Part shown: positions 1,387-58,000 of the stretch, piece after piece | How positions within the stretch are numbered: the stretch's first letter is position 1 | How the letters are laid out: every line of letters starts with the position of its first letter | NCBI GenBank assembly: GCA_024137785.1 | Contig: JAHRHZ010000021.1 | Coordinates: 41,690,442-41,754,441 of the forward strand | Source of the DNA: Ginglymostoma cirratum | Taxonomy: Eukaryota | DNA: 64,000 nucleotides | Direction of reading: 5' to 3' | Program-made: the position numbers and the translations under genes | The notes under the pieces: generated by a model | What the model was told of the DNA's origin: nothing | The model's database searches: none | Seen by the model: only the letters and a program-made list of their open reading frames with translations

Positions 1387-1478
1387 AGGCACTACAGTGG
1401 CTACGTGGTTAGCACTGCTGCCTCACAGCGCCAGGTTCAATTCCAGCTTGGAGTGTGAGTTTGCATGTATGTCATCTC
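1387..1478 (+). mobile_element. HE1-like tRNA-derived SINE, 5' fragment
   Basis: gtggttagcactgctgcctcacagcgccaggttcaattcc (A/B-box-like head typical of the elasmobranch HE1 SINE), followed by gtgtgagtttgca. Confidence 0.7.
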
Positions 1479-1491
1479 CATATTTCCTTAC

Positions 1492-1644
1492 CATCATAGG
1501 TAACGTATGGAACTTGAAATCCTTTGGCACTGTTGCCCTCATTAGCTTTGAATTGAATCCACAGCTTTCGAGATCTTGAAGTAAATGCTATTGGTCGCTC
1601 GTAGGTCTGGCATGTTTCATATGTTGTGATCGATGTTGGTGACG
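1492..1644 (-). CDS. SCUBE1: SCUBE1 coding exon, CUB domain C-half
   Basis: ttgcag|CG..., (S)[50 protein letters not shown], donor G|gtaagg; 153 nt. Confidence 0.96.
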
Positions 1645-3799
1645 CTGCAAACAACACAGTAAATAATACAATATAAAATAAGAACCTTTCAAAGACTTGA
1701 CTGGTTTCAGTGCATATATTGCTTATTTTAAGCCATGAGGTTCAGAATTCCATCTGGCATGCACCAAGGACACAGATCAATAAGCTGCCAATTTATGAGC
1801 CTCCATCCATCAAAATTATGTCATATCGACTCTGGTATTACAACGGTTTCAAACCCCAGCAATCCCTTCCTCTGAAGTTGCAAATGTTTAATATTGATTG
1901 GGTATCGAGGAGCAAGGGGTGCATTGTCCAACAGCTCAGAGTGAGGAAGATGTGGACATGGTCAGAATTTGTCAGGTAGGCAGTGTGGAAGGAAGGGGAT
2001 GACATCTTATGGAGTATGCTACCACAAACAACATGTACCCACTTCTTTCCAGCCTTTACCTGTGAAAAACCGCCTACCCACACTTGCCCGACTGACTGCC
2101 CTTGCTGTGGTATGGAGTGAGCAGCACATTTAATCAGGTTGATAGAATTACCAAGTCTAATTGACTTTTCTTTATTTACATTTGGCAAACTCGCTGCCCA
2201 CCCACCTAACATATTATAGGGCTGAAGGCACAGGGTGTAATACCCCACCCAGGTTCAAGGGCTGACCTTTCAGATGGGTAGAACTACCTAACTTATTTTA
2301 CATTCTAACATTTTTGGAAAAGAATCTTTTTCTGCAATAAATCTCATGATATTCTTGTGTTATGAGTACTTACGATACCACCTTCTGTGTTTGGGAGTAC
2401 AGATTGAAATTTAAACTTTTGCTTAATCTTTTAAGCTTTTACCTTGTAGCAGATACAGAACGATCATGGCAGTAATATATATAACCTGTGTCTTACGGCT
2501 TAAACACTATTGTGCAAAAGACTTTGGATATAAATTCTGGTCCAAATTTATTCACATTGAGGAGAATGGCTAGAAACTTTGAGCAAGTTAATGCTTTAAT
2601 ATTCAAACTTACATGAGATACTAGGATGAAGCTTTCATGGAGTATATCAATGAGTAGAACATTGAATCAAAACAGAAAATAATTGTAATACTCAACAGGT
2701 CAGACACCTCAGTGAAGACAGGAACAGACTGGTTTGGTGGAATATTCTTACAGCATTGGGGATCTGACCTGCCAGACAGAGACACAGTGAGACACCCACT
2801 TTGCCTCTTTCCAGGAAAACCCACCAGTGCCAATCAAGGCAACGTTGGGGTTACTGCAGGTCTTCCTCTGGAATGAGGACCTCTCGGGCAGAGATCTCAC
2901 CCAGCCAGTGCTATTGCCAATAAGAGACCAGCAGCTCCTGTGCTCAGCAGCAAGATGGCTGCTGCCAAAAGGACATTCCCTTTCCCCTAACCCATCCCCA
3001 TGGATTTCCAGGATTGCTGAGGGGTCAGGCCACTGGTAAGTAATATGGGAGGGAGGTGTTCACTGAGTGGGATTATAGGGCAGATCAGAAACAAGAACAA
3101 GGGTTGGCTGTCGCCTCCCTGATGGCCATTCTCATGATCAGGCAGTGATTACCTTTGATGAAAGGATCCCACCTACACCCGTCCGTCCCAGTGCCCACTG
3201 AGGGGAAAGTAATACACCTGTCTCAGCTGTTGCACATGTCTCATTGAGGCATGGCCAAGATGCCACTGGGTTAATCCCAGTGATAGCAGCATGAGGTCCT
3301 TGTGGTGACTAATTAGTGACTTAAGGGCCACAATTTGCAATGCAAGAAGGTCAACAATGGACATTCCTGCCCAGAAATTAATTGTGGTGTGACAGTAGGT
3401 TAGCAGGTTTCAGATACACATCTCCCACCGTCCCACACTGGTAATGAACACATCATATCTGGGAGTGGACCTCTTAGTTTAAATCATCCTACACTCGTTC
3501 TTTCTCAATATTGAGATGATGTGACACTTTTATTTCTTCTCTGCTTTATGTTTATGAAAGGAAAATGGTCAGTAAAAGGAGGAAGGATACACAGACGTGA
3601 ATAAATGCAGAAACTAGGAATAAAAGGAAACAAACCAAAGTTAACAGAACAAAGACATGACGTGAAAGGAAGACAGCAAAAAAATTGAAGTGTATCAGAC
3701 AATGTATGTATCAAAATATCCATAATAACGTAAGTACTTAGTACACTATAAATCTGGGGGCACAATACTAGTGAATAAATGGAGTATGTGGTTACTTAC

Positions 3800-3997
3800 A
3801 ACTCTTCCTCATCACTAAAACATCTCCACACTCATCCTCCATTGGTAAGAAAATCTCCGGCACTACAATCAGTATTCTCCTCTTCGGTGGTGGATTTATA
3901 TTCCAAATACACTCCACATTAGAAGGATAGTCTCCAGGATAGTTGGGAGATTCAATGAATCCTGTGTACTCTCCAAGGTCGCCACCGCATTGCTGAT
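3800..3997 (-). CDS. SCUBE1: SCUBE1 coding exon, CUB domain N-half
   Basis: ctgaag|AT..., (N)[65 protein letters not shown], donor T|gtaagt; 198 nt. Confidence 0.95.
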
Positions 3998-4149
3998 CTT
4001 CAGATAAAAGTTCCAAAACAATACATACATCATTTAAAATCACCTTTGTGAAATATTCCAAGTGTCAATCATTTGACTCAAACTTGAATCATCTTTTGAA
4101 AACTGAGGTAGTATTAACTCCTGTTCACACCCAAGCTCACTTTCCCATA

Positions 4150-4305
4150 TGATCACAAGAGATGTAATACTTGCCCTTTTACATCTTCCCTTCTAATTAG
4201 GCATACAGCCTTTCAGTTAGATCAATAATTTGCTACTCCCTCTTTGGGTTTGACATGTTGCATTCAAAGTGTCAATGCGGTCTCCTCTTATACTGGGGAC
4301 ACTGG
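4150..4305 (+). mobile_element. Penelope-like element GIY-YIG endonuclease fragment (decayed)
   Basis: agatgtaatacttgcccttttac (RCNTCPF) ... tgcggtctcctcttatactggggacac (CGLL.Y.G.T with frameshift), resembling the PLE CxxC...C.QCGLLYIGET motif. Confidence 0.55.
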
Positions 4306-4667
4306 ATATATATCAGGTAATCATCTCCAAACTGTCCATGAGCTTGACCCTACAGCCAGGATTTAACATGGGACAATAGCGCCAGCACTAGCTGGGAGGT
4401 CAAAAGGGAAATTATGCACGTCTCGGGAATGAGTTGCCTGAGGTTGTGGCTTCCGTCCCTCTGAGACACAATGTGCTACCTCCAAGAGTTAGTGGCCAAT
4501 CAGAGAGCTCGCAGATCTTCTGTCCAGCTGTGTAACTGTGCTCAGTACCTTGAGACTGTGGTCAGTCCCAGACATGTGGTTTCATTGGATGTTAGGGTAC
4601 AAGGTGAGTGGCGTGGCCTCATTGATGCCAGTCAGACAGCTCCCTCACCCCAGGCTGGCACTGTGAA

Positions 4668-4894
4668 AACCAACAGAAATGCAGATGTTGTACATCAGGA
4701 ACAAAAACAGAAGTTGCTGGAAAAGCTCAGCAGGTCTGGCAGCAACTGTGAAAGAAAGATCAGAGTTAACGTTTCGGGTCCGGTGACCCTTCCTCACAGT
4801 TCTGAGGAAGGATTACCGGACCCAAAACGTTTGTTTTTCTTCACAAAAGCTGCCAGACCTGCTGAGCTTTTCCAGCAACTTCTGTTTTTGTTCC
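4668..4894. mobile_element. Palindromic non-autonomous element (Penelope pLTR-derived) with degenerate hammerhead motif
   Basis: Perfect 46-bp inverted arms 4698-4743 / 4849-4894; centre gtttcgggtccggtgacccttcctca...ctgaggaagg; flanking direct repeat ggcactgtgaa (4657-4667) / ggcagtgtgaa (4895-4905). Confidence 0.8.
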
Positions 4895-5799
4895 GGCAGT
4901 GTGAAGCTTGGAGGTAGCAATCTGGAGGGGACGGGGAAATGGTGAGCTTCGGGGGGTACAGGCTGATCCAGCAGGAAAGACCCACATCGGAGGATTCCCA
5001 AACACTGCAGTCAAGCCACCAAGCTATTATACACTCAGTAACGGAAAGCGACCATAAAATGCCTTGTACTTTACGACTGCCAGGGTGGCGTCAGAATCAA
5101 TTTGAGACAACGCTATCCATCTGCAAGTGAGTTAACTCGGAACCATGAAGCACTCCGTGACAGCATAAAAGGGCGACTGGATCAATAGCAAAAGGATTCA
5201 ATCAGTTGGTCTGGATAGCTCAGCGCAGATTGATTCAAAAGTCAGCTTAGAAAAAGGCTGAAAAAGCCATTGCAGCTATTTGAGGCATCCAGAAAGTAGA
5301 CATCCTTTAAAACTGATTTGTTTCCCCCCAGTATTGCGTAGTATTAGACATCACATAACTGCTATTAAAACAATTACCATCTTTCGCCCAACAGAAACAA
5401 TTTCTAATAAACAAGGACAAAAGGAAGGTAACAATAAAAACCATCAAGGCCCTGCTGTTCCATGAGGTGATGACAAAAAAATTGTCAGGCACTGTATTTA
5501 CCCCATTATCAAGGCAGTGTTTATGAACATGAAGATTTAACTCCCAAACAGGAATGAAAACTTTTTAGATGAAGGTCAAGATGGCAAGGGGCAAATGGTT
5601 AGCCTGATGTTGTGGGTAGTTGTCCTGTGTCCATTGGCTAGAAGGATTCAAACGGGTGATTGATGCAGTGTGAACAATCAGCCTCTAGAACCACGGTCTA
5701 GCATCAAGTGTTCATCTTCACAGGGCTGTCCTTGTCAGGCAACTGTTATCTTCTGATAGCAGATGGATCGAGAGGCAAGGAAAGTGATTAGAGAAGTCC

Positions 5800-7025
5800 A
5801 TCAGCTGTACATAAGGATGCTGTCCTCACCATGTCAAACTGTTACAGATCGTATACATTTCTGGCTAATTAAGTAGCATTGTCATTGAAACTGTTCAGTA
5901 ACAATGTTATCAAGCAGCACTTGCTCAGGAATAAGCTGCTCAATGATGCTCATAATGGGATCTTCCAGGGCCACTCAGCTCCTGACATCATTACAATCTT
6001 CATCTACACATGGGCAAAAGAGCTAAAGAGCCAAAGATGAGATGAGAATGACTGTCCTTGGCATCACGGGAGGATTTGACTAAATATGGCATCAAGAAAG
6101 TCTACTAAATTGGAGTCAGAGGGAGAACTCTCCGCTGGTCGAGTCGCATCTAGAACAAAGGAAGACAGTTGTGGTTGTCGGAGGTCAGTCATTTCAGACA
6201 TGCTTGCAGGAGCTCCTCAAGGTGGTGTCCTAGGCCCAATCATCTTTAGCTGCTTCAATGCCCTTTCCTCAATCATTAGGTCAGAGTAGGGATGTTCACT
6301 GATAACTGAACAGTGTTCAACATCATTTGTCACCCCTCATTTACTGAAGCAAACACAAAGTAAGACAGTATCGCCCACTATCAACATACTGGTGGTCTTA
6401 CCATTGACTAGAAACTGAACAGAACCTGTTGTAAAAGTACTGTGACCACAAGAGCAGGTCAGAGATTAGGAATTCTACAGTGAGTAACACTCTCTCTGAT
6501 GCCCTGAAACCTAGCCACCAAGTGCCAGGCACAAGTGATAGATACTTTCCAACTGCCTAAAGTGCACTGGTTTGTTGTGCAATTCCAATGTCATGCAAGA
6601 AGCTCAAAAAAATGTAGGTTAAAGCTTCACATTTGATGACCATCCCATCCACCACCCTCAAAAAAAAATCACCCCCTTCACAACTGATGCACTGGAAACA
6701 GCATGTTCCATCCACAAGATGTGCTACAGCAACTCACCCTGGCTCCTTTGAAAATACCTCCAAACCCATGAAGGAAAAGGGCAGAAGGTGCACAGGAACA
6801 CTATCTGCGAGTTTCCCTCCAAGCCACAGACCATCCTGACTTGGGAATATATCATGATTCCTTCACTGTTAGTGTGCTCCCTTCTTAACAGCATTGTGGG
6901 TGTACCTTTAGCAGCAAATCAAGGTGGCAGGTCACTACCAGCTTCTCTAAGGGCAATGAGGGAGAGGCAATAAACACTGGCCCAGCCAGTGAGACCCTCT
7001 TACTGTGAACAGATTAAAAAAAAAC
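5800..7025 (+). mobile_element. Decayed CR1/L2-group LINE (RT region through 3' tail)
   Basis: GAPQGGVLGPIIFSCF (RT PQGSVLGP motif) in ORF 6086..6289, gatgttcactgataact (decayed FADD), 3' tail gggcaatgagggagaggcaataaacactggcccagccag then A-run. Confidence 0.8.
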
Positions 7026-8035
7026 AACCTATGCTGGGGAAGCAAGCTCGAATAACTCTTCCATGCAATCATTTATCCAAGTTTCTATTCCTAAAAGATG
7101 AGCTAGTGGACAAACTGGGGTGCATGAGAGCAATACATGACTGACGTGCAGGGATAGGATAATCACATTTGATGATAGAAGAAAAAGTTGGATGTTCTAC
7201 ATTCAACAGGTGGAAACTGGTTTCCAGCTCAATTAATTAAGGCTTGTCAATAACAGAGGTCCGATATGAAGTGGGGACACCGAATAATGGGTAAAGTGAT
7301 ATTATGTAGAATTCAGTGCAGCTCAGGGAGATGTAAAATTATGCAACACCCAGCAGTTTCACCGCAAACAGAACAGTGCTTAAAAGAGAGATCTGAGCAC
7401 AGCATTGTGGAAGATCATGTTTAAGATTGTTGTTGCAGTGGTAAGAAAGAAAGTAATATACCTACAAATCTAAAGCCTTTTGATAACAGTCAGAGGTTAC
7501 AAAGAAATTTCACTGTGAGCAGATCAGGTTGCTGTAGCAAACCACCTTAATGTTTCAGAGACTTTCATACATGAAGCTATAATATCACGATGCAAAACAT
7601 TTACTACAGTATAAATAGTGTTACAACATTTATTATTATAATTGTGTATCTTTAGAAAAAAGTCAAAGGAAACAGAACATATTCTGTTGTGTGGAAGGGA
7701 AACCTAGGGAGTCTTCTGTGGTTCTACAGAATCACCGGTAATAGTGAGCAGGCAGCCTCTCTACATCTTGTCCAACTATCTTTTCCATTAATGTCAATGC
7801 GCTGCAATATGGTCATGACTGATTTCAAGCAAGACAATAGACTCCTAGTTACAATTTCATTCTAAAGTGAAAAAAAATTGACTTTCTAAAAACACGATGT
7901 TGCTTCTGAGAATTGCTCCCGATCTTCCAGTCTTTGACGCCTAACTTTTGCAAGATCTGCTGTTTATTGCAAAGAACCAAAATTTTAAACACAAACCAGA
8001 GAATTCTGTTCTTGAATACATTGGCGATTACTTAC

Positions 8036-8197
8036 TTTTACATTGAGTGACATTTGTGGAGCCATCAAAATCTGTAGTTGTATTTCCAGGACAGGTAATA
8101 CAGTAGTTTTGGCCAAACTCAGGCTGATAAGTTGCAACTGGACATCTTATGCATCTGTGTGTGGTGGAGTTGTAATAGTGACCAGGAGAACAATGAA
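8036..8197 (-). CDS. SCUBE1: SCUBE1 coding exon, Cys-rich repeat
   Basis: cacag|TT..., (V)[53 protein letters not shown], donor A|gtaagt; 162 nt. Confidence 0.96.
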
Positions 8198-8589
8198 CTG
8201 TGGAAAGGTTTATGAACAGTAAAACTATTTTCTCAAAGCAATGAATGATACATGCTGACAAAAACGTCTATACAAAACAAAACATAACACCACAATATTT
8301 TTAAGGGATGAGAAAGGTCACTATTTGAACCAGGAAGTAATTCGGCTGCCAATAAAGACTTTCTGTTGTGATATTATATAACATGTGAACATGATAATGA
8401 TTTCTAGAATTCAAAAATAGAATGGATAAAATTGATGTCAGAGTGCCAATATCAGACAGTATCCTTGATTGAGAGATCAAAACTACCATATACAATATAA
8501 GTCGCATTTATTTAACACTTTTTAATGTGAAAAATAACATCTGCCAGATGTGAGGAAAATTGAAGGTCAAGACTCCTGTCTTTATAAGA

Positions 8590-9220
8590 CAGGATTCTGC
8601 CCAGGAATAAGGAAGAAATCTTGGACAGATTGGTGACAGAATGTTGAAAAGGCACTGGGACCAGCTGAAACACATTCAAGGGATTTTGAAGAAAGTGAGA
8701 ACGAAAATTGCGGGGGTTCTGGCCATAATCTTTCAGTCTTCTCTGGACTTGGGGAAGGTGCCCGAAGACTGGAGAATTTCAAATATCACTACCTTGTACA
8801 AGAAAGGTTTTAAGGATAATTTCAGCAATTACCAGCTAGTTTAACTTCAGTGGTAGGAAGAAATTGAGAAACAATTATTTGGGATAGAATTAGTAATCAC
8901 TTGGAAAAAGACAGGTTCATTAGGAACAGTCAGCATGGATTTCAAAAGGGAAAGACTGTTTAACTAACTTGCTGGAATTTTTTTGAAGAGGTAACAGAAA
9001 CCATTGAGGATGGCAACGCTGTTGCTGTGGTATACTTGGTTTTCCAGATGGCACCTGATGCATTACCACAACAACAGACCTGTGAGAAAAGGTACAGGTC
9101 ACAGTACAAAAGTGACAGTAGCAATGTGGCTCACTAACAAGAAGCAGGGAGTAATGGTTTTCAGGCTGGAGGAAGGGTCATAGTGAAGTTCTTCAGGCGT
9201 TATTATTGGGATTCTTATTA
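8590..9220 (+). mobile_element. CR1 (HER1-like) LINE ORF2 fragment
   Basis: LAIIFQSSLDLGKVPEDWRISNITTLYKKG...NYQLV, SQHGF.KGK.CLTNLLEFFEEVT. Confidence 0.9.
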
Positions 9221-9599
9221 AGGAGACTCAAAGTCGAGCTTTTTTAGAAGTTAGATACTAATAGCCAAAGTTTAAAAGCTCTTAAAATGTTTTCAGTGTA
9301 TAATTATTTTCATTTACTAAGAAATTAAGTGTTGGGATCCAATGCAAATTGTTCTGTACAGTTTTGAAAAGTAATTTTCAGATATTTAAAAATTGGGTTA
9401 CTCAGATGATGATGAATCATTTTGAAATAAACACATTTTCAGGCACATAATAAAATGGTGGTAGGTTACCACTCTTGGGTTTGGGATTTAATTTAGGTGC
9501 TCTAATGGATTTTTTAATGCAGCATTTTAAATACATTAATACCAATTATGCTGGTTCATAGATTATGTTATATTTGATGAAGTTTAAATGAGGAAACAA

Positions 9600-10460
9600 A
9601 CATAGAAACATCGAAAATTGGCGCAGCAGTAGGCCATCCAGCCCTTCGAGCCTGCTGCACCATTCAATATGATCATGGCTGATCATTTAACTAAGAACTC
9701 TGTTCCTGCTTTCTCCTCCTACCCTTTGATCCCTTTAGCACTGGGAACTATGCCTGACACCTTCTTGAAAGCACTCAATGTTTTGGCCTCAACAGTTTTC
9801 TGTGGTAGAGAATTTCACAGGCTCACCACACTCTGGATTAAATTTCTCCTCATCTCAGTCTGAAATGGCCTACCCTGTATCCTTAAACTGTGACTCTTGG
9901 TTCTAGAATCCCCAGTCATCAGGAACATCCCTCCTACATTTACCCTGCCTAGTCCTGTTAGAATTGTATAGGTTTCTATCTGATGCCCCCCTCATTCTTC
10001 TAAACTCCAGTGAATATAGTCCTAATTGATCCAGACTCTCTTCATACGTCAATCCTCTCATCCCAGGAGTCAGTCTGGTAAATCTTTGTTGCACTCCCTC
10101 AATAGCCAGAGTACAGGTAAAGGGACCAAAATGCACACAATACCGAAGGTGTGGTCTCACCAAGGCCCTAGATAAGATGTCCCTACTCCTGTACTTAAAT
10201 CCTCTTGCCATGAATACCAACATACCATTTCACTGCCTGCCCCATATCTGCATGCTTACTTTCAGTGACCCAGGCCTCGTTGCAACTCCCCCATTCTCAA
10301 TCTATCACCTTTCAGATAATAATCTGTTCCTGCTACCAAAGGGGATAGCCTCACATTTATCCACATTATATTTCATCCGCCATACAATTGCCCACTCACT
10401 CAACTCTTCCAAATCACACTGAAGCATCTCTGCACCTTCCTCACAGTTCACCCTTTCCCA
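9600..10460 (-). mobile_element. CR1 LINE 3' fragment
   Basis: ALVRPHLRYCV...LAIEGVQQRFTRLTPGMRGLTYEESLDQLGLYSLEFRRMRG; WRMKYNVDKCE; catagaaacatc tail. Confidence 0.9.
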
Positions 10461-10548
10461 TCTAGCCTTGAAGTATGAAGGCAACAAGAGGAGACTTTGC
10501 AGTCTTGCGCTGTTTTCATACCATGGGTGGAAAAAAGGCTGAATTTAC

Positions 10549-10716
10549 CTTTTGTTTCACAATCTTGAAATGAAACTGCTGCTTCATATTTTGTCATCAA
10601 TCCACCTCCACAGTGAAAACACTGAGTGCGACCTGGCTCTGGTTGGAAGGTGCCAAATGGACATGACCTACAGGGTCTGAATCCATCGGAGGAGAAATGT
10701 CCTCGAGAGCACTGGC
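10549..10716 (-). CDS. SCUBE1: SCUBE1 coding exon, Cys-rich repeat
   Basis: tttcag|GC..., (G)[55 protein letters not shown], donor G|gtaaat; 168 nt. Confidence 0.94.
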
Positions 10717-11529
10717 CTGAAACAAATTATGAACAATTACAAACCATTATTTGTAGTAGTAAATTTAGAATTAAAAAAATGAAGGGTGGAATTGTTTGGT
10801 ACTGCCTATGGTTCTGTTTCTGGAATTGGATATGGTACAGCTATTTTTTTGCCTGGCTAGGTTGTAGCAGTAATGAAGCTGAAGGGACAATAGTAAACAG
10901 CAAACTGGTACAGCAATGGCAGAGGCTAGAAATGTGGTGGCTCCCTGGTTTTAATGATGTTTCCCTTATAGGATTACCTCCAGCCTGCTCAGGCAAGGCA
11001 GGACGCCTGGGACAAGAGGAGGCCTGCTTCTCAGCCCAAGAAATCCTGGATGAAGATTGCAACTACGATGGGGATATCCCTGGAAATTTGGATGCATGGC
11101 GAAAGAGGGCGAATGACCTTATCCATCACAATAGGTGCACCACAACATGCTTGCCTTTGGGCTGACATATGGTGAGGTGCAAGGATTGTCCAATCAGAGA
11201 CGTGATTCCAACCCAATTCCTAGAAATTGAGCAGGCTGCTGGAGGTGGCAAGAATGGTAGTGTATAGATAAGTGGCCCCGTTCTACTTCAGGTGACCAAC
11301 CCCCGCATGGCTGCTTCTGATGACTGCATCCAAATGTCATTCATGTCATCATGATGGAAATCAGGCAGGGTATAACATAGACATTGCACTTGTTTATGGT
11401 ACACGTACAAAGGTCAAATTCTACATTTTTACCAAAAGAATACCAGTCGACTGTCACACGAGTAATAATTTTGAGGAGTTGAAAAATCACACATTCTCAT
11501 CGTCTTGCTATTGCAAAATTACCAGGTGA

Positions 11530-12110
11530 ATTTAGCTGCCAAGCTTTCTCTCTCCTCAACTAAGTCATTGATGTAAAGTGTAAAATCTGAGGCCTCAGCC
11601 CAAACCCTTGAGGAACTCTGCTGTTACAGCCATCAGACAAACACTAATTTAGGCGTACTATCTCCTGCCAGCCAGCTAATTTTCTTTTATTCTGGGTAAT
11701 TTGTTACCCCCCTACAACAAGCTTTTATTTTCTGCCATTACCTTTGACATGGCATTTTAACAACTGCATTCTGGAAATCCAACTACAGTGCATGAACAGG
11801 ATCTGCTTTATCCTATGTTGCTCCTTTAAGTCTAAAAGTGCTGAGACATGATTCATCTTTCACAAAACCATTCTGACTCTCACCATTTACCTTGAGCTTT
11901 TCTAGGTGTGCAGCTATAATCACTTTAATAATCAGTTCTAAGACATTCCCACAGCAGACAACAGGCTAAGTGGCCCACAGTTTACAATTTTATGCCTTCT
12001 TTGTTGAATAAGGGGGTTATGACTGCCACTTTCCAGTCAGATGGAACCTCTCCCGAATCAAGAAATTTTTGAAAATTAGCACCAAAGCATCTACTGCCTA
12101 ATTTTATGTT
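11530..12110 (-). mobile_element. Old CR1 LINE RT fragment
   Basis: tttcacaaaaccattctgact (SQNGFVK on minus), gcattctggaaatcc (DFQNA), ccactttccagtcagatggaac (VPSDWKV). Confidence 0.7.
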
Positions 12111-13046
12111 GAACTTGGCTGTTTATCAGCTGATCCTTCTTGATGCCAAGTCTGTTCAATCTGGGGTCTTCCATCCTATTGGTGCAGGCTGGTCAGAGAG
12201 AGGCTTGCTGATTACACTGCCAGCTGAAGGCACTAAATCCTGCAGCCCCTCAGCCTGATTCTCCAGATCACTGCTAAAGCCGACATACTGGCTGGCTGTC
12301 TTTAACGTGACACCAATGACCAGCCTGATACAGCAACGAGCTGCAATTTGCGAGATCCCACACACATCTCCAGTGGATCAATGAAGTGATCCTGAAGCAC
12401 AGACATTCAGTGTCACCATGACCTTTAACATCATAGACATCTTCTCTGACGAGGCCTGTCATTGATCAGGATGGCTGATCTTTGGAGCCAAAATTGAAAT
12501 TCTGCTTGTCATTTTGTTATAACTGGCAAGGCTCTGGTGCCTCAGATCTTAACTACAAGACTGGGGAGTCAGTAAACTGTTGGAAATGTTAATTGCATTA
12601 CAAACAGTTTTAATTATTTTGTGAGATTGTGATGTCCTCCCATTACACCAGCCACCCTTCACAATAGATCAGATGTCTGTCCCAATATCTTTCCACCCAA
12701 TTTTCCAGCTTACCTCTACCTGAGTGGGAATATTTAAACCTGTGAAGTTCAGTGGAAGTTACAACTTGGTAACGGGAGCCCATGTAATGCATTAGGCCAA
12801 AAACCATCCTTTTTAGGATTTGGGTAAAAATCCAATTTACAAGAAGCTGTACAAGTCTCCTGAATAATAGCTAACAACGTAATTAAAATGGATTTGGATT
12901 CCCTGAAGAAACCATGTTACCCCAATAACAATCTCAAGTCAGTCTCACTCAGAGTTTTATCAAATCATCTTTAATTTGCACCTAGGTTCTTGATTTCTAC
13001 TGAAGGAACAGCAAAGTGCAATTACAAGCAAAAGACAGGAATTCAC

Positions 13047-13208
13047 CTCCACATTCAGACACATTCCGAGCTCCAGCCATTCCTTGTCCATCATTGCTCG
13101 GACACGGCTCACAGGATAGCTGTCCTTTCGTGTCTTGGTAGGTTCCTGGAGGACACAGGAGACACTGCTTGTGCTCCCCACTGTAGTAGTGGCCTGTTTC
13201 ACAGCTGA
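13047..13208 (-). CDS. SCUBE1: SCUBE1 coding exon, Cys-rich (ephrin-receptor-like) repeat
   Basis: ttccag|TC..., (I)[53 protein letters not shown], donor G|gtgaat; 162 nt. Confidence 0.93.
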
Positions 13209-13361
13209 CTGGAACAAGAAGACAAAATTATGAGTGACTGGAAACTCTATGTATTATATAGAGTGATGTTTCACAACTGATCATCCTGTTACATTGTAAA
13301 GGATATCTTCACACTGTGAGCCAAAATAATCCCAGCAATCACTGGTGAATAAATGACATTA

Positions 13362-13492
13362 AAAAAAACAAAGAACTGTGGATGCTGAAACTCTGAAATA
13401 CAAATAAAAATGCTGGAGAAACTCAGCAGGTCTGGCAGCATTGGTGAAGAGAAAACAGTTAACATTTTGAGTCCAGTGACTGTTCTTTAGAA
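13362..13492. mobile_element. Single-arm copy of the Penelope-derived short element
   Basis: aagaactgtggatgctg...gctggagaaactcagcaggtctggcagca...gttaacattttgagtccagtgac, homologous to the 4668-4795 and 21660-21795 arms. Confidence 0.7.
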
Positions 13493-14657
13493 GTCACTGC
13501 TCTGTTTGGAGGACTGGCTATTTGCTTGTATTTGAATGAGGTCCACTGCTCGGTTAAAAAAAAATCAAATTATGATTAAAATTTTAATAAGGATCGTAAC
13601 ACACCGTGGTATTTGTTTTACTTTGGGATGGCTCATCAAACCAACTCTAGTTTAGTCTGGTGGGTTTAACATTATCTAAATTCTTCATTGTCAGTAACTG
13701 GAAAGAAGTTCTAGCCTATCTGACTTGGGACCCCTTTGAAAATGGTGAGTGGGGCCTAATCCTGGGTTGTCAGGTTAGTGGGACATGGCAGGGGTAGAAG
13801 GAGTAATGAGGACAAAAAGAGGAATAGAGGTGGCTCTGGGCATTTCAAGGGTCACGGGAGTATGAGGGGTAGGAAGGATCATTTAGGGGGCATATGGGGG
13901 GGGGGGTGGGAAGGTGATGGTTGGAGGGCCTGTCATTCATCATTAAAACTAGGCCAGTGTGCCGGAGGTGGACATTCTCTCCTGGCCGTCACCCGCCTTT
14001 CCTGACCCCACCGCCCATCTGACCTTTCTCTGGACGTAGGATCCCAACTCATTCCTCCTCCCACCTCCCACCTCCACAGAATTAGAATATGGTTAGCAGG
14101 GGCACTGTTACAGGAAATGTGGCTCAGATCAGGACGTTGCTGGACTTGGTCCTCCGCTCTCTTCCACAACAGAGTATGGGAAGGTTTTAGCCTCTATTGG
14201 TTATCAATCTAATCTGGTTAGAGATCATGTTGAAAGTAAGGGAGCCTAAAATTCAAAATAAAGATAATAGGTTAAAACTAATAATTGAACAAAGTACTTT
14301 ATCTTGAAATTCTCAAAAAAGCACTATTGTAAGGCCTTGTGAAAATAAAAGGCCACTGCTCAGTGAACTATCTGCAGAACCTGCATATAAATGGCTTAAA
14401 ATGGGATTTGAGTCATCTTCCACTGAAAATGATCCAGGCAATTCCGCAAGGATTTTCATCCGAAGTCTTAAATTCACATCTGCTGCTTTGATGTTATCAA
14501 TTAAGACTAGTGCAATTCAGAATGCGTCAAAAATATCATATACAAAGCCCTACCATAAATCTGCATGAACTATTTTAAACAGTAGGTTTTCACAGTGCGT
14601 CTTGGTTAGATTGGAAGCTGTTCACAATGACCAGTACCATCTTGGAATAATACTTAC

Positions 14658-16018: not shown

Positions 16019-16118
16019 TAACACAAAAACAAAGTTGCTGGAAAAGCTCAGCAGGTCCGGCAGCATCTGTGAAGGAGAAAACAGAGTTAACATTTTTGGT
16101 CCGGAGACACTTCCTCAG
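16019..16118. mobile_element. Single-arm copy of the Penelope-derived short element
   Basis: caaaaacaaagttgctggaaaagctcagcaggtccggcagcatctgtg...ttcctcag; flanked by atgattct at 16006-16013 and 16121-16128. Confidence 0.75.
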
Positions 16119-16254
16119 TTATGATTCTGTCCCCGGTTGTTATGGCTGGTGGCTCTTCTGGTCCTAAGTCATGGGACATGTGACCAAGCTGACCACTGGA
16201 TCACCCATCATCCATCTTGATGGCTGGGGCCAATTCCAACAACGTGTTTATGTT

Positions 16255-16404
16255 TGTATCAGAGATAAAAGGTACTGCAGATGCTGGAGAATCCGAGATA
16301 ACAAGCATGGGGCTGGATGAACACAGCAGGTCAAGCAGCATCATAGGAGCAGATGATGATGATGCTGCTTGACCTGCTGTGTTCATCCAGCCCCATGCTT
16401 GTTA
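16255..16404. mobile_element. Fold-back element with perfect 46-bp arms (related family)
   Basis: 16299-16344 is the exact reverse complement of 16359-16404, 14-nt loop; flanked by gtgtttatgtt at 16244-16254 and 16409-16419. Confidence 0.8.
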
Positions 16405-16424
16405 ACATGTGTTTATGTTCTGTC

Positions 16425-21651: not shown

Positions 21652-21890
21652 AAACGTACAAAAACCAAAAGAAACTGTGGATGCTGTAAACCAGAAACAA
21701 AAACAGGAATTGTTGGTAAAGCTCAGCAGGTCTGGCAGCACCAGTGGTGAGAAATCAGAGTTCATGTTTCGGTTCCAGTGACCCTTCCTCAGAACTTTCT
21801 GGGTTTCTGGAACCGAAACATGAACTCTGATTTCTCTCCATAGATACTGTCAGACCTGCTCAGCTTTTCCAGCAATTTCTGTTTGTGTTA
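21652..21890. mobile_element. Palindromic Penelope-derived element with hammerhead motif
   Basis: Inverted arms about 21697-21778 / 21807-21887, inner 30 bp perfect; minus strand agtt-CTGAGGA-agggtc-actg-gaacc-GAAA-catg-aact; flanking ttctttcttaaaa (21639-21651) / ttcttccttaaaa (21904-21916). Confidence 0.8.
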
Positions 21891-22559
21891 CAGCTTGTAG
21901 GTGTTCTTCCTTAAAAGGGAAAGGAAAGCCTAAAAACTGTTCTTTGACATTAATTAATTTCACATTATTTGAAACTTTCTCTAATGAATATCCTTCTGTT
22001 ACATCATAGAAGTATCTGTCAGAGGGAACTCTCCACAAGGTCTTCGATCAGTTCGACAGCAAGGGGTGTACAACTTAAACTGGACTTACTCCCAAGCTAT
22101 CGGACGTTGGCTCACACGGTCAGTTCCTTGCTAGAGTTGGTGAAACAAAAACTTATGAATTCTGATCGACAGTTGAAAAACCCTGTGGTTAATCTGTTCT
22201 GCCCCATATAACAGCAGACATCTTTGTGCTTCACCATATATACACTGCCTACCCTGACCAAAATCATTTTATCTCCTTGACAGAAGTGAAAATCCCAATA
22301 GAATTTCTCAAGCAAATGATCTGGGAAATTCCTTCCACTGGGGGAAAAAATAAACTTCTTGGGTCGCCTTGGCTGAGAACTAAAACTTCTTAAATTCATA
22401 ATTTTGCTGTATAAACAAGGAAATACTTTGAATAAATTCTATGCCTGAGCTTGTTTTCCCCATCATATTTAACAATATTTACACTACGAGCCAAAGGAGC
22501 CCAGTGGTGTCATCCACTGCTGAACAGCTAATCAGCTTCCAGCTTAAGCAGCTACTAAC

Positions 22560-42989: not shown

Positions 42990-43878
42990 TTTGGATGTGA
43001 ACATAGGAGGTATGGTTAGTACATTCGCAGATGACACCAAAATTAGACAGCGAGGGAGGTTACCTCAGGAGAACAACGGGCCAAGGAATTTCAGTTGGAC
43101 CTTAATTTAGATAAATATGAGGTGCTGCATTTTGGAAAGGCAAATCAGGGCAGGACTTTACCATTAAGTGTACAAGTCCTGGGGATCACTGATAAATAAA
43201 GAGACTTTGGAGTGCAGGTTCATAGTCCCTTGAAAGTAGAGTCACATTTAGACAGGATAGTGAGGGTGCTGATTGGTACGCTCGGCTTGGTTAGTCAGTG
43301 CATTGAGTATTGGAGTTGGGAGGTAACGTTGCGGCCACACGGGCTATTGGCTGGGCCACTTTTGGGCACTGTGTGCAATTCTGGTCTCCCTGCTATAGCA
43401 AGGATGTTGCAAAACTTGAACAGGGTTCAGAAACGACTTACAAGGATGTTGCCAGGGTTGGAAGGTTTGAGCTATAGGGAGGGGCTGAATAGGCTGGGGT
43501 TATTCTCCCTGGATTGTCAGAAACTGAGGGTGGCCTTACAGAAGTTTATAAAATCATGATGCACATAGACAAGGTGAATAACCAAAGTCTTTTCCCGAAG
43601 GTAGTGGAGTCCAAACCTAGACAGCATAGGTTTAAGGTGAGAGGGGCAACGTTTTCCACACAGAGGGTGGTGCGTGTATGGAATGAGCTGCCAAAGGAAG
43701 TGGTGGAGGCAGGTACAATTACAACATTTAAAAGGCATTTGGATGGGTATATGAATAGGAAGGGTTTACAGGGATATGAGCCAAATGCTGGCAAATGGGA
43801 CTAGATTAATTTAGTATATCTGGTTGGCATGGACAAGTTGGGCTAAAGGGTCTATTTCTGTGCTGTACATCTCTAGAA
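42990..43878 (+). mobile_element. CR1 (HER1-like) LINE 3' fragment, relatively young
   Basis: FADDTKI; RVQKRLTRMLPGLEGLSYREGLNRLGLFSL; FSTQRVVRVWNELPKEVVEAGTITTFKRHLDGYMNRKGL. Confidence 0.92.
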
Positions 43879-44321
43879 CTTCAACTTTTCTTCTTTTCCT
43901 TCTGTAAGTATCTTCCAGAAGTTGTCATATCCATCTTACAAAATTCCATGACATCTTAGAATTTTGCTTCATATACTAAATGATATCAGAGTGAGTTATT
44001 TCCCCAGCTGAAACTAGAGTGTGGTGGCAGTTTCTGTCTTCTCCAGTCCAATAAATGTACATATTTACTTAAGTACAAGTGAAATGAATTATCGGACAAA
44101 CATACATCATATTTGTGCAGAAGATAACCCAGATCACGTACGTTAAACAAGTGGATTTTCCTGATCATGGTTTTGATTGCAATATTTTGGTCTGCGTTGT
44201 CTCTGTTTGAAATGCAAACCTATTGCTGGCAAAGTTTCTCATTACCTCCTGGGATTAATGTGATATTTTCCATGTGCTTCAGAACCCCTCATTTCCCCCG
44301 AAAGCTGTACAGTTCATCCTG

Positions 44322-44538
44322 CCATGATTTTTAACTTTTTGTTTTAAATTTTAAAAATATACTTTATTCATAAAATCTTTTACACATCTAGAGTCACTAA
44401 AGCAGTTTGGCTCAGTGCGGTAGCATATGAAGAAACCAAATAAACATCAGAGTTTGACTCCAGCCAGCACACAAACCCAAGACATATGTTACTCATATTA
44501 CTCATTTACGGCCCTGGGAGGGTCCGTTAACTGAATGG
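44322..44538 (-). mobile_element. 5'-truncated retroposed fragment (Tx1/L1-like 3' end) with target-site duplication
   Basis: acagttcatcctg at 44309-44321 and 44539-44551; minus strand ends ttttatgaataaagtatattttt followed by an A-rich tail. Confidence 0.6.
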
Positions 44539-44551
44539 ACAGTTCATCCTG

Positions 44552-44910
44552 GTATCATATTTGACCCCGAGACAAGCTTTGAATCATATTCTGCTATTAT
44601 TAAGGCCACACATTTCCACTTCTATAACGGTATCTGATTCCAACTTACTTTATCTGTTGATAAAACACTTATCCACACCTTCATTACCTCCAGGTTTGAC
44701 TATTCAAATGCAACCCTGGCTGAGTTACCACATTCTACACTGCCTGAACTTGAGGCAATCCAAATTTCTGCTACTCATGTCTAAACTCTCACTATCTATC
44801 ATTCAGTGATCACATTTTCTCCCTGACCTACAATGGCTGCTGGTTAAGCAACATCTAATTTTAAAATTCAAACTTTTACGTTCAAGGCTTTGCCACTCCT
44901 GATCCTGCCT
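44552..44910 (+). mobile_element. L2 LINE ORF2 C-terminal fragment
   Basis: acacttatccacaccttcattacctccaggtttgactattcaaatgcaaccctggct = TLIHTFITSRFDYSNATLA (L2 LIHAF.TSRLDYCN motif); later L.WL.VKQ..FKI. Confidence 0.75.
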
Positions 44911-45624
44911 TGGAACTCTATTGCCATTCCGAAAACTTTGCTGGGCCAAAATCCTGCAACTCCCTCCCTAACAGCACAATAGACCACCTTCACCAGGATG
45001 GGACTTCAGCAATCCAAGGAGTCAGCTCACCACCTTCAAGAACAATTAGAGATGAACCATCAAATAGCTTGAATTTTAGGGTCTTAAAAGAGGTGCCTTC
45101 AGAGATTGGTTATAATCGCTCAAAATTGTCTTGATTCTGGAAGGGCCCCTGTGGATTTGGAAAACCACAAATCTAACAGCTCTGCTGCTGAGGTGGAAGA
45201 CAGAAATCGAGAGATTTTGGACCAGTCAGCCTAACACCTGTCATAGGAAATATTTCTAGTTCCATAATTCAGCAGGTAACAAAATACAGAAGAGAATGAA
45301 ATTGCAGTCAGGCAGAAACAACAGTCTGGTGAAAGGCAAACGTGGTTGACTGAATGAAGGGTACAAGAATTTATAGCTTATTTGGATTTCTGAAGGGAAA
45401 TTAAGTGAGCTGCGACACTGACCATTGCTGCACCAAAATAAATATGTTTGGGAAACAAATGGGAATGGATTAAGGATTGATTAGCTAACAGGAAACAGAA
45501 TGGGAATCTGCAGCAGAGTACCACTCCATTACCATGGCGATCAATGCTGGGGTTTTAACTACTTATAATCTACATTAAAGACTTAGATACAAGAACTGAC
45601 TGTGTTATGGATTTGTATTTATTA

Positions 45625-45865
45625 AGAGCATAGGATTAAGGTGGGGGGGGGGTGGAATGTAAAAGGGACCGAAGGGGCAACTTTTTCAGACAGGGTGGTG
45701 TGTGTATGGAATGAGCTGCCAGAGAAAGTGGTGGAGGCTGGTACAATTACAACATTTGAAAGGCATCTAGATGGGTACATGAATAAGAAGGGTTTGAAGG
45801 TATATGGGCCAAGTGCTGGCATATGGGACTAGATTAATTGTTCATAATGGACAAGTTGGACCGAC
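45625..45865 (+). mobile_element. CR1 (HER1-like) 3' end
   Basis: RVVCVWNELPEKVVEAGTITTFERHLDGYMNKKGL. Confidence 0.9.
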
Positions 45866-45871
45866 CGGTTT

Positions 45872-46785
45872 GTACAGCACAGAAACAGACCCTTCGGTCC
45901 AACTCATTCATGCTGACCAGATAACCTACTTAATCTAGTCCCATTTGCCAGTATTTGGCCCATATCTCTCCAAACCCTTCTTATTCATGTACCCATCTAA
46001 ATGCCTTTTAAATGTTGTAATTGTACCAGCCTCCACCACTTCCTCTGGCAGCTCATTCCATACATGCACCACCCCCTGTATGGAAAACATTGCCCCTAAA
46101 AGTCCCTTTTTATATGTTTTCCCCCCCTCACCTTAAACTTCTGCTCTCTAGATTTGGACTGCCTTACCCTGGGGGAAAAAAACCATGGCTATTCACCATA
46201 TCCATGACCCTCATGATTTTATGAACCTCTATAAGGTCACCCCTCAGCCTCCAACATTCCAAGGAAAATAGCCACAGCCTTTTTAGCATCTCCCGATAGC
46301 TCAAACCCTCCAACCCCAGCAACACCCTTTTCTGAACTTTCTCAAGCTTAAAATCTTTCCTAGAGCAGGGAGATGAGAATTGAATGCAGTATTCCAAAAG
46401 AGGCCTAACCAATGTCCTGTACAACCACAACAGGACATTCCAACTCCTTTACTCAATGCACTGACCAATAAAGGCAAGTTTACCAAACGCCTTCTTCACT
46501 ACCCTATCTACCTGTGACTCCACTTTCGAGGAACTACGAACTTGTACCCCAAAGTCTCTTTGTTCGATAACACTCCCAGGACCTCACCATTAAGTGTATA
46601 AGTCCAGCCCTGGTTTGCCTATCCAAAATGCAATACCTCACATTTATCTAAATTAAACTCCATCTGATCAAGGTCCTGCTGTCCTGAGAGATTATCTTCT
46701 TCACTATCTACTACGCCTCCAATTTTGATGTCATCTGCAAACATAGTAACCATTCCTCCTACATCACACCCAAATCATTTATATT
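45872..46785 (-). mobile_element. CR1 (HER1-like) 3' fragment, tail-to-tail with the preceding copy
   Basis: LYRTLVRPLLEYCIQF...LEKVQKR..LEGLSYRE..LFSLE.WRLRGDLIEV; gtcatctgcaaa (FADD on minus). Confidence 0.92.
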
Positions 46786-53592: not shown

Positions 53593-54409
53593 GACAGTCA
53601 ATTTGTGCTCAATAAAGTCACGTATACAGCAATGAGCTAATGATCATGTAATCTATTTCACATGGCATTGTTTTCAATGAGAACAGGCCATTCAACCCTT
53701 GGTTTGATGGTGGATGCTAGCAGAACTTCAATATTCTGAACTGTGACATTTCCACCCATCTTTCACTCATTCACTTATAAATGGCAAATGCATTTGGTGT
53801 TTCACACCTCCCCCCACCGAAAAAAAAATCACCATCTTTGAGGTGGGAGGCTGAAAGGAGAAAATGGAGAATGAAGAAAAAGAGGAAAATGGGACAAGCA
53901 CATCAGAAACATTCACAATAGGAATGTCTTGTAATTTGCCTTATCTTATGATGAGTTGTCAACATGTCTGTAGAAGTACTCAGATGAGTTTTGGAAAACA
54001 TGGGCTTGTTGCCTCTTATTTCAACCATACTACTAAAACAAACAGAAACCACATCTGAAGAGCTGCACATTGAATACATACACTCTTACCACACATAAAA
54101 GCCAGTGTTAGTTTACACAGCCCTCCTGAGGCTTGTTTGTCTGTCATTAAAACTGAATTGAAACCACATTTTTTTAAAATTGCATAACAACTATGTCGCT
54201 TGAAGTAGGCTCAAAAATATCGATGGGTGGCAACTTGCCGCTATAAAAGTTCATATCAGCTAAATTTCAAATGGTGTAAATACACTTTTGGCACTTGCAT
54301 AAGTGCCATTTCTCTGGTCTGTCGTAAGGTTTTTCTTATTTGCCTGTATTTTTTCAAAAGTTGAAGGATTTTCAAGTGAGGAAATGGCGGTCTTTTTCAC
54401 TTTTATCAT

Positions 54410-55050
54410 GTTATAGAGTCAGAGAGCCATACAGCACAGAAACAGAACCTTTGGTTCAACCAATCCATGCTGAACATAATACCAGAATAAAAATAGTGCC
54501 CTGCCTGCCTACTCCAGGCCCATATCCCTCCAAACCTTTCCTATTCATGTACCGATCCAAATGTCTTTTAAATGTTATAATTGTACCCACATCCACCACT
54601 TCCTCAGGAAGTTCATTCCACATGCAAACCACCCTCTGTGTAAAAAATTTGCCCCTCATATCTTTCTTAAAATCACTCTTCTCTCACCTTGAAAACGTGG
54701 CCCCTAGTCATGAAATCTTCCATCTCAGGGAAAATACAATTACCACTAACTCTAGCTATAACCTCTCAGTATTTGGTACACTTCCATCAGGTTGCCTCTC
54801 AACTTCCTATGCTTCGATGAAAAGAGTCCCAGCCCCTCAGTCTTTCTTTATAACTCAAACCTTCTATGCGTGGCAACATCCTGATAAATCTCTTCTGAAC
54901 CATCTCCAGCTTAATAATATCCTTCCTATGACTGGGCGATCAGAACTGGACACAGTATTCCAGAAGAGGCCTCACCAGTGTCCTGTCCAACCTCAACACG
55001 ACTTCCTAACTCCTATATTCAAAGGACTGAACAATGAAGGCAAGCATGTT
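54410..55050 (-). mobile_element. CR1 (HER1-like) LINE 3' fragment
   Basis: ORF 54456..54659 FFTQRVVCMWNELPEEVVDVGTIITFKRHLDRYMNRKGL; tagagtcagagag tail. Confidence 0.9.
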
Positions 55051-58000
55051 GTTCAGTTTGCCCCACAAAGCAAAACTCCCGTGTTTGGTCAAATGTTATT
55101 AAACACTGGTGTAGGAAAGAACGCACAATGCATGCAAGCATATTTTGTAGGAGAGGTTGGTTGAGGCAGCTCTCTGTCAATAAATAGTTCTACTGATTCT
55201 TCATTACAGTCAGGCTGACCGAGTATATCAATGGTTTCTCACTGTACGTGTACAGGAAATGTTCTACCAGGAGTTGCAGCACATGTAAACTGACTATACC
55301 TCAACTCAAACAGGAAACCATAAGCATCAAAATAAAATCACTTCTTTAAAAACTTACACAAATCAAATTAATGATTTACACTTATACAAGGAGATGTAAA
55401 AGCTAAAGTTTCTGAAAACTTCATAAAAATTAAAATTCAGCCTGAAAAATTAATCATTTAACATCTCTTTACAGATATAAAATTACTTCCACAGGGCCAG
55501 TTACGCTGATTATCAAATTTTATTAAGCACATCATCATTAAAGATCCAGTTTTTCTAAAAAAAAAATCACTCCTGGGACATGGAAGTCCCAAGCTAGCCA
55601 GCATGTATTGCCAGGCCCTATTTGTCCTTGAGATACCTGAATGAACAGAGTGTAACTTTATATGGAACTTTTTTCGAACAGTGAGATTAAACAGGAGAAA
55701 AAGGAGCTTTTTTCTTCTTGTTTCCGGATTGGTGGCTCAGCAGCAGGGTTGGGGTGAGGTGAGATTGGGGGCACAGCCATTGCTGTGTCACAGCCCTGAA
55801 TGACAACCTACAATTTTGAGATTCTGTGCAATCTGTGCATCCAAGGTAATAGAGATCAAACAAACCTAAGTTTTCACTCGTCCCTGCAGCTTGATAAACA
55901 TTCACATTAGATAGAATTGCATTAGCCATTCTTGAAGCTCAGTCAGCCATTCTTCATATTATCCAGCCATTTCTTCAATTTGCTTTTGCTGATTAAATTG
56001 CCCGATAGACTCATCACTGAGCTCCCAGAATGGTAAACGCGCTTAGATCTCAGCAAGCAATGTCTACACGGCTGTATACATTGTTTAATCCTTAATTGAC
56101 ATCTCTGTTGTTACAAAACAACCTATTGATTTATTGAAGAGCTTTTTTCCCCCACTGCCTGTGTGTTGATTTACACTATGATAAGAGTTCTGAATTGGAT
56201 AAAAGCTTCTTACATTGAGTAATGCAATTGATGTCTTTCAGGAAGGTAAGAGGGCCAATAAATTTCACTGGAAAATTTTAACGTTATTATTTTTGGTTGA
56301 TGGCTCAAAATGAGGGCTCATCCCTGGCTCACTACTCATGTAAGAGGCTGTGAGCCATGTTTTCGTATGGAATGGACCAACTCCACCAAAAACGCAGAGG
56401 AAGGGTGTTTGAACTATCTATCCCTGCGACAAAGCTGGCAAGTGGGAGTCCAGCTTGTGGGCTGGCTACCTGCACCCTTTTTCTGCTTCAGCAAACATTG
56501 CTAAGAACCAGAATGGCAAAATACAGGCCATTACTTCTCATACAACACGTCCCCTTCAGAGTCACTTATTCCATCTTTTACTGCACAGGAACTGGCAACT
56601 CTGTTCACAATATTTAAAACAATGACTACACTTTAAAACTCCATTGCTCATAAAGCACTATAAAAAGGCCTTCTCACTTCTCCCAAATATTAAGCAAAAA
56701 TGTTTTGCCAAAAACTGATGTCATTTAAAAAGCTGTCTCCCCCTCGATGATTCATAGATTCTTCATAGAACTAATTCTATCAAGGAAGAAAGGAACAGAA
56801 TTTCCATTAAAATAAATGGGACTGTTTACCATGGAACCAAGATTGTTTGAACTGATCACTGTGCAAAGTGGGAAATATGAAGAACTTGTGTATCATTAAT
56901 TTAACACTTTTACTTTTAAAATGCAGTTATTTTGTTTTGGTTATGGCAAAGAGGAATTGGATACAATATTGATTTATTATTCCATACTACATAATTCTAT
57001 GAATAACCAGATTCATGTAGAACTTCCAGAATTTTTCAGCACAGGTGGTGGCCATCTGGACATTGTACCTCTGTCCGTTCTTTGGAAAAGTTACCCCCTC
57101 AGTTCCACTCCCTTTATCTACTGATCTATCATCACTGCCTTGACGTTTTCTCCCCTTCAAACATATTTCCAATTCAATTTTGAAATCTACTATTGTCTAT
57201 GCTTCTTTTCAGTAGTACATTTCAAATCATAATCCCCTACCTCCAAGACAAAAAAAAATCTTTTTTACTCCTACTTCTTTGCCTAATTATGACCATCAAA
57301 TAACAATATCAAAAGCAGCTCTGATCTGTTGTAATTACTGGAGTAGTTTTATCGATTAAATATGTTTATATTATAGTGGTAAACGGAGATCAGAACTTTT
57401 CCAAAATTAAGTGCTTTATTTGTCACAGACAGCAACAAGTTCAATGAATTTTAAACTGGTGCCAGGGTAAACCAGCACAGGTTGATACCGATTGCAACAT
57501 GTATCACCATAAACAGCTCCTTAACCACATGGCCTGAAATCCTCACACACGCCCTTCCCAAGCACTGGCATTTCTCTCATTTCTTCCATCACACACACTC
57601 CTCTGTCCCCAAAATCTCCGGTTTGTCTTGGCACTGGGAGGTCAAGGTGTTACATTTGCACAAATTAAATTTAGAAAGAAAAATACAAACATATGAGTGG
57701 TACAACCTGACTAATCCTCCCCTATTTATTTGATCTCTGAGTCAGATTATGGCATGGCTCTCAGCATAAATGACATGTTGTATCAATTTTCCATTCAGTC
57801 TGAATTTACTGAGCAGAATTTTAGTTTGATCAAGCTTGTTGACTTATCCCTAACAGAATCAAAGTAGTTAACTGGTATAGCTTTGAATAAATGGTATAGA
57901 TTCTGCCTAATGTTTAGTTTTGGCAGTACTTTTTGCAAAATTGCAACTCAAAGATTGCTGCATCCATGTGCTAAGATTTTATCAACCGAGAGAGGCGTGG

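Follow-up and report, generated by a model that had tools for sequence, protein, structure and literature searches.

We find that a short, non-coding fold-back element of Ginglymostoma cirratum (copy A, positions 4657–4905 of the 64,000-nucleotide stretch of DNA analysed here, hereafter the window) is, with a probability of about 0.8, a dead-on-arrival insertion of a Penelope-like retrotransposon (PLE); two copies of its hammerhead ribozyme end were likely made during insertion and linked head to head. Copy A has the features of such an insertion: an inverted, 5′-truncated copy arranged head to head, a 32-bp tail on one side only and a hammerhead in the pseudo-LTR. Membership of the PLEs is the most likely assignment. 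It rests on anatomy and motif because none of the 131 open reading frames in the window (72 amino acids or more) matched a reverse transcriptase or GIY-YIG domain in Pfam; the only matches were to host exons, plus one below threshold, and the parent element was not seen. The original prediction, which was made from the letters of the window, had proposed a Penelope derivative, and the anatomy supports a PLE-like origin.

An inverted element with a one-sided tail

The outer arms of copy A (4698–4743 and 4849–4894) match perfectly over 46 bp. The palindrome between their outer ends (4698–4894, 197 bp) folds at −160 kcal/mol (z = −18.6), with none of 200 shuffled sequences as good. The non-coding palindrome of about 230 bp, the 46-bp arms, the 10/11 flanking repeat and the two damaged, opposed motifs that had been described before are all confirmed. 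The overall size of the element also stands, but its palindromic share is only 197 of ~229 bp, and a 32-bp extension on one side (4666–4697) had been missed. From comparison with other copies, this extension is part of the element, the edge of which is marked at 4666 by 1,519 RNA reads that depart there into unrelated sequence. A stop-free frame of 150 amino acids runs across the element (4465–4917); it had no Pfam match and was rejected as a gene.

Both ends of the element adjoin the flanking repeat (4657–4667 and 4895–4905; 55% GC). An equal score was reached at 18 of 6,000 random places in the window and at 21 of 6,000 local places, so that the 10/11 match is beyond chance. The putative duplication had been put at 11 bp; its left copy overlaps the first two bases of the element, and its length is 9–11 bp. 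We also noted a perfect 13-bp inverted repeat (4474–4486 and 4907–4919; 420 bases apart), one arm of which lies just to the right of the element and which is probably due to chance. Copy A is an old, decayed insertion. Coordinates are collected in Table 1.

Table 1. Features of copy A and related copies in the window
Feature	Position	Strand	Basis or remark
Copy A, left putative target-site duplication	4657–4667	+	Last 2 bases overlap the element; 10/11 match to 4895–4905
Copy A, one-sided extension (Penelope-type 'tail'), 32 bp	4666–4697	−	Left arm only; common to the copies at 21661 and 13364
Copy A, left arm, of pseudo-LTR type (minus-strand sense)	4698–4797	−	Arm comparison
Copy A, left minimal hammerhead motif	4764–4797	−	Descriptor scan; intact parts are stem II, GAAA, the cleavage triplet and the 3′ strand of helix I
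Copy A, right minimal hammerhead motif	4798–4831	+	Descriptor scan; helix I 5′ strand and CUGAGGA intact
Copy A, right arm, inverted copy without tail	4798–4894	+	4849–4894 identical to 4698–4743
Copy A, right putative target-site duplication	4895–4905	+	Flanking-repeat tests
Copy D, a more diverged single arm that carries the tail	13362–13494	−	Window self-comparison
Copy C, single arm without tail	16021–16121	−	Window self-comparison
Copy E, sister family, fold-back	16262–16406		One-sided tail; lacks the centre and the ribozyme
Copy B, same family, fold-back	21661–21896		About 235 bp; tail on left arm only; right motif partly deleted

Related copies in the host gene

The host gene lies on the minus strand (1475–13227), with exons for three Ephrin_rec_like repeats and a split CUB domain in Pfam, an architecture that we take to be that of a SCUBE-family gene. 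Copy A sits within the intron between 4064 and 8031, and copies A–E are all intronic in the minus-strand Ephrin_rec_like/CUB gene. The tail is confined to one arm in all three fold-back copies of the window (A, B and E). Copies A and B differ in their centres, and copy E has a short GAT repeat in place of the ribozyme. Another repeat occurs elsewhere in the window as inverted and dispersed copies (42990–46774 and 54328–55161; 70–88% alike), with no Pfam match and with an inverted repeat at 45625–46147.

We searched for flanking repeats within ±10 bases of the ends of each copy and compared the scores with those at 3,000 random places. Candidate target-site duplications, each equalled at no more than 4% of these places, were found at four of the five copies: A (11 bp), B (13 bp), C (8 bp) and E (11 bp). 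That of copy E is exact, with none of the 3,000 random places as good, and that of copy B matches at 12 of 13 positions about 8–9 bases off the ends. In copies B and C the distance between repeat and element end reaches about 9 bases, and the boundaries of these copies are uncertain. Copy D had no flanking repeat above chance, and only that of copy A passed when the search was narrowed to ±4 bases.

These data bear on whether the family consists of MITEs, that is, non-autonomous DNA transposons with inverted repeats that resemble a ribozyme by chance. Long inverted arms, small size, many copies and a flanking repeat all suit a MITE. However, the ends are asymmetric, as the 32-bp tail extends past the inverted repeat at one end, single-arm copies predominate, the candidate duplications (8, 11, 11 and 13 bp, with the boundaries of B and C uncertain) have no fixed length, and the family consensus contains a complete minimal hammerhead. 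We regard this explanation as barely credible. The original prediction had favoured retrotransposition and had named fixed-length duplications as evidence to the contrary; the one-sided tail and the variable candidates at four of five copies bear it out.

Two broken hammerheads in one hairpin

Damage to the two motifs of copy A goes further than had been supposed. On the left, C3 is changed to G and the 5′ strand of helix I was lost at the junction, leaving 1 bp of that helix. On the right, G12 is changed to A, stem II has one mismatch and the 3′ strand of helix I was lost in a 5-nt deletion (helix I, 0 bp). Both motifs are thus damaged, as predicted, and neither has the complete layout of a minimal hammerhead ribozyme (min-HHR).

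A minimal-hammerhead descriptor that allowed one core mismatch gave five matches on the two strands of the 64 kb: both motifs of copy A, one in copy C and two at unrelated places. The strict core pattern gave two matches in the window against 1.3 expected, one of them in copy B, and the pattern alone is not significant. A scan of 4200–5400 with Rfam, which had been proposed as a check, returned five weak matches at E ≤ 10 with no hammerhead family among them, and exact-pattern scans found no match in metagenome contigs and none in viral contigs. Matches to a shorter pattern at seven loci were dismissed as chance, as they showed no likeness outside the pattern.

On either strand, one motif of copy A is sense and the other antisense. 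In folding of copy A, forcing the sense motif open costs 36 kcal/mol on the plus strand and 32 kcal/mol on the minus strand. Self-cleavage of copy A is therefore unlikely, because the opposite arm traps the sole sense motif, and copy A is predicted to be inert. Nor can the opposed motifs on one RNA form the dimeric hammerhead fold, since that fold requires two same-sense motifs (PMC4209133).

Just downstream of the cleavage site, on the minus strand, 4744–4770 resembles a 3′ splice site, with a branch-point-like motif, a pyrimidine run and CAG. The same splice-site-like sequence is co-oriented with the host gene in the left arms of copies A and B and in copies C and D. No splice joint was present among the 15 of 227 joints examined.

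Family sequence in reads and contigs

We mapped reads and contigs from four of 24 listed runs to 3700–5500, the locus of copy A only, at 80% likeness. RNA run X22, of which about 24% was read, contributed 23,736 reads, and two DNA-type contig sets of another organism (organism B) contributed 29,329 and 47,431 contigs. Depth fell almost entirely on the element; the flanks of copy A had none. Family reads were equal in both directions and mostly less than 95% alike. Because of this symmetry and the zero depth of the flanks, nothing marks copy A as giving rise to an RNA of its own.

The reads repair the ribozyme in the 40 of 127 rows examined, which do not include 4824. C3 is restored by 79 of the 145 RNA reads covering 4797, and stem II by 245 of 343 RNA reads at 4812 and by 304 of 340 at 4814. 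In all four runs, the loose ends at 4796 start with letters that complete the core and helix I, and GAAA is intact in the left arm of copy A and in copy B. Each part of the min-HHR (CUGANGA, bulge, stem II, GAAA, palindromic pair, NUH and helix I) is intact in one arm or in the read majority. Judged from these sequences, the family has an intact minimal hammerhead as its consensus. The composite of the two arms proposed earlier, a minimal type I hammerhead, is thereby borne out as the true consensus of the family, with C3 and stem II restored by the reads.

Single-arm reads make up the majority of the family, and most family reads cease to match at the 5′ edge of the ribozyme: in X22, 5,492 reads pass from 4796 into sequence that fits neither arm, compared with 145 that cover 4797 in the geometry of copy A. 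Fold-back joints accounted for 215 X22 reads in the 15 of 227 joints examined, and the fold-back share of X22 reads is at least about 6%; within the window it is two of four family copies. Among the joints listed, 4796 or 4800 is connected to 4719, 4730, 4742, 4744, 4749, 4750, 4752 or 4789 on the opposite strand, or skips to 4848–4862, and the second arm is mostly attached without a second ribozyme. Copy A stands at the long extreme of this series of fold-backs.

The original prediction implies that the fold-back with its two ribozymes is a mobile unit in its own right; on this model it would be transcribed from either strand, cut by a ribozyme and re-inserted. Consistent with this, fold-backs account for two of the four members of the family in the window and have similar lengths (229 and about 235 bp), and the 145 reads noted above cross the centre as copy A does. 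Against it, the inversion junctions vary widely, copies A and B have different centres, single-arm copies dominate, the hairpin traps the sense motif and opposed motifs cannot dimerise on one RNA. In Anolis, moreover, the insertion RNA must extend to +172, beyond the start sites of reverse transcription, and a stub such as copy A lacks such RNA (PMC11167929). We consider this explanation highly improbable, and this part of the prediction was not upheld.

A source of another kind would be a short non-autonomous element, either a tandem non-LTR retrozyme or a mini-PLE made from a pseudo-LTR, that borrows the protein of a PLE; the fold-back would still be made at insertion. Such a source is plausible given the preprint of Li et al. 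2026, which reports PLE-derived tandem retrozymes, together with monomers dispersed in the genome, for 20 of 31 vertebrates, the single chondrichthyan of its sample among them (10.64898/2026.07.22.740005). Non-autonomous PLEs are also known in Chlamydomonas (PMC8557442). Very many short pieces of the present family seem to share an end near the 5′ edge of the ribozyme, more sharply than random truncation predicts. However, the window holds no tandem unit, its one array being of an unrelated 16-bp sequence, and none of the 15 of 227 joints examined runs head to tail, although these data would not reveal a source whose unit is longer. The letters before 4666 agree poorly (0.4), as unique flanks do, and the motif is minimal, not canonical. 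We judge this origin unlikely. The suggestion of a retrozyme-like system also fared poorly, given the absence of tandem units from the window, the dominance of single-arm reads and opposed motifs that cannot dimerise.

Other observations concern the sequence around the mapped arms. In X22, X8 and X14 the letters beyond 4796 open with an identical stretch of eight bases, and those of X22 stay richer in GC for about 20 bases; they may represent upstream sequence of the parent element. Run X23 contains 37 reads, most of which come from one or two loci, that join an arm to a different tail-side sequence with 93–98% agreement; they possibly derive from another subfamily or from one expressed copy. 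Position 4760, a candidate subfamily-diagnostic site, is T in about 55% of reads and A in about 45%. Neither of the two RNA runs showed a pile-up of RNA ends, at the cleavage site or elsewhere, and none would be expected from a poly(A) library made of fragmented RNA.

No empty site was seen in the four runs mapped to copy A. In organism B, the flanks of which differ by ~4–5%, one contig spans the left junction, which is identically placed, and reaches 39 letters into the element; another spans the right junction with 30 letters, one below threshold. The insertion of copy A probably predates the split from organism B, because the left junction is shared.

Perfect tracts within diverged arms

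The arms of copy A differ at 13 of 99 columns and nevertheless contain the 46-bp perfect run (permutation P = 0.002). Those of copy B differ at 16 of 96 columns and contain a perfect run of 30 bp (P = 0.023; approximately 21751–21782 and 21809–21840). The perfect tract of copy B carries ribozyme-breaking changes that are common to both of its arms and absent from copies A, C and D. In copy A, the 46-bp tract has no CpG and, among the 40 of 127 rows examined, no majority difference from the reads. The same test gave P = 0.0001 for copy E but was discounted, as the centre of that copy is not homologous between the arms.

The contrast between perfect tracts and diverged inner arms suggests arm-to-arm copying after insertion, by template switching, as the simplest account (PMC8604942). 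An alternative for copy A is conservation, in a tract without CpG, combined with two separate RNA templates.

Comparison with Penelope-like insertions

Insertions of endonuclease-bearing PLEs have been described as head-to-head inverted arms with a palindromic junction and 8–10-bp duplications (Arkhipova et al. 2013, PMC3846280; see also PMC8969392 for the described form), and the PLE unit as containing an inverted, 5′-truncated copy and a tail of 30–40 bp that is often confined to one end (Craig et al. 2021, PMC8557442). Copy A shares with these units the head-to-head arms and the shorter inverted copy. Its 32-bp tail compares with 31 bp in Adineta Pen2a and 30–40 bp in general, and its putative duplication of about 9–11 bp with 8–10 bp in Adineta (PMC3846280; PMC8557442). 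Copy A differs in having no open reading frame between its arms and in a truncation that reached the ribozyme.

The ribozyme is also of a kind known from PLEs. Cervera and de la Peña 2014 (PMC4209133) described min-HHRs in PLE pseudo-LTRs, with thousands of dispersed copies and with dual min-HHRs 100–700 bp apart on opposite strands. The present family fits their consensus in its CUGANGA, its 5-bp stem II, which opens with G-C and is preceded by a single extra base, its GAAA, its palindromic pair in place of helix III and its short helix I. The motifs of copy A differ in that they abut instead of lying 100–700 bp apart and are both damaged. Cartilaginous fish account for none of the 56 motifs in Figure S3 of that paper.

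A functional comparison is possible with Poseidon PAc of Anolis carolinensis (Frangieh et al. 2024, PMC11167929), in which both target strands are nicked and extended and reverse transcription starts internally at two sites, the interval between them being the tail. The PAc open reading frame starts at stem II, and initiation occurs 111–118 nt into it. In the present family, the distances from the start of stem II to the two ends are 92 and 124 nt, close but not equal to the values for PAc, which belongs to a different family; as in PAc, the ends are one tail's length apart and roughly 100 nt downstream of stem II (PMC11167929). For PAc, a C3G change abolishes cleavage, cleavage is dispensable for insertion and the template must reach +172. 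Genomic copies in both systems retain the whole uncut ribozyme, and in neither do RNA ends accumulate where the ribozyme would cut. The targets that PAc prefers are AT-rich, in contrast to the putative duplication of copy A, which is 55% GC (PMC11167929).

By this comparison, staggered nicks would each prime one cDNA, one from each start site; both cDNAs would end near the uncut ribozyme and then be joined head to head. Self-priming on an antisense template is an alternative route to the inverted arm (PMC3846280). The two ribozyme motifs would be passengers, one of them antisense in each transcript and paired with the other. Within host pre-mRNA, copy A would form a long hairpin and would not cleave itself, and, by analogy with Anolis, a stub that lacks RNA beyond the start sites would not be used again as a template. 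A further scenario, in which such stubs are re-mobilised after host read-through of either strand yields a 230-bp hairpin RNA that Penelope protein unwinds and copies, giving rise to a MITE-shaped lineage of its own with one ribozyme per strand, seems to us very unlikely.

Retrozymes are head-to-tail tandem units with same-sense ribozymes and circular RNA (Cervera and de la Peña 2020, PMC7229834). Copy A resembles non-LTR retrozymes in being short, non-coding, PLE-related and endowed with a type I hammerhead sequence; it differs in its head-to-head arrangement and in its opposite-sense, broken motifs (PMC7229834; 10.64898/2026.07.22.740005). A retrozyme system in chondrichthyans would not in any case be new, given the report of Li et al. 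2026 (10.64898/2026.07.22.740005), and the families listed in the supplements of that preprint may include the sequence of copy A. Expanded Penelope-like elements in introns have been reported for the whale shark (10.1101/443036); in the text of PMC6155905 considered here, sharks are mentioned only for the name of a ribozyme. We found no description of the copy A family in sharks in the literature searched, the repeat databases Repbase and Dfam lying outside that search.

Significance

Copy A is most likely an unremarkable dead remnant that belongs to a very abundant repeat family, and elements of its kind have been described before. As a decayed intronic repeat it carries little weight by itself. 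In host pre-mRNA the insert may contribute a double-stranded stem of ~95 bp, a possible substrate for A-to-I editing. Palindromes such as this one are easily misfiled as MITEs. Fold-back copies preserve both the start points of reverse transcription and the position at which their halves met, and a genome-wide catalogue of them could test how PLEs make their inverted ends, a step that the papers cited here leave open.
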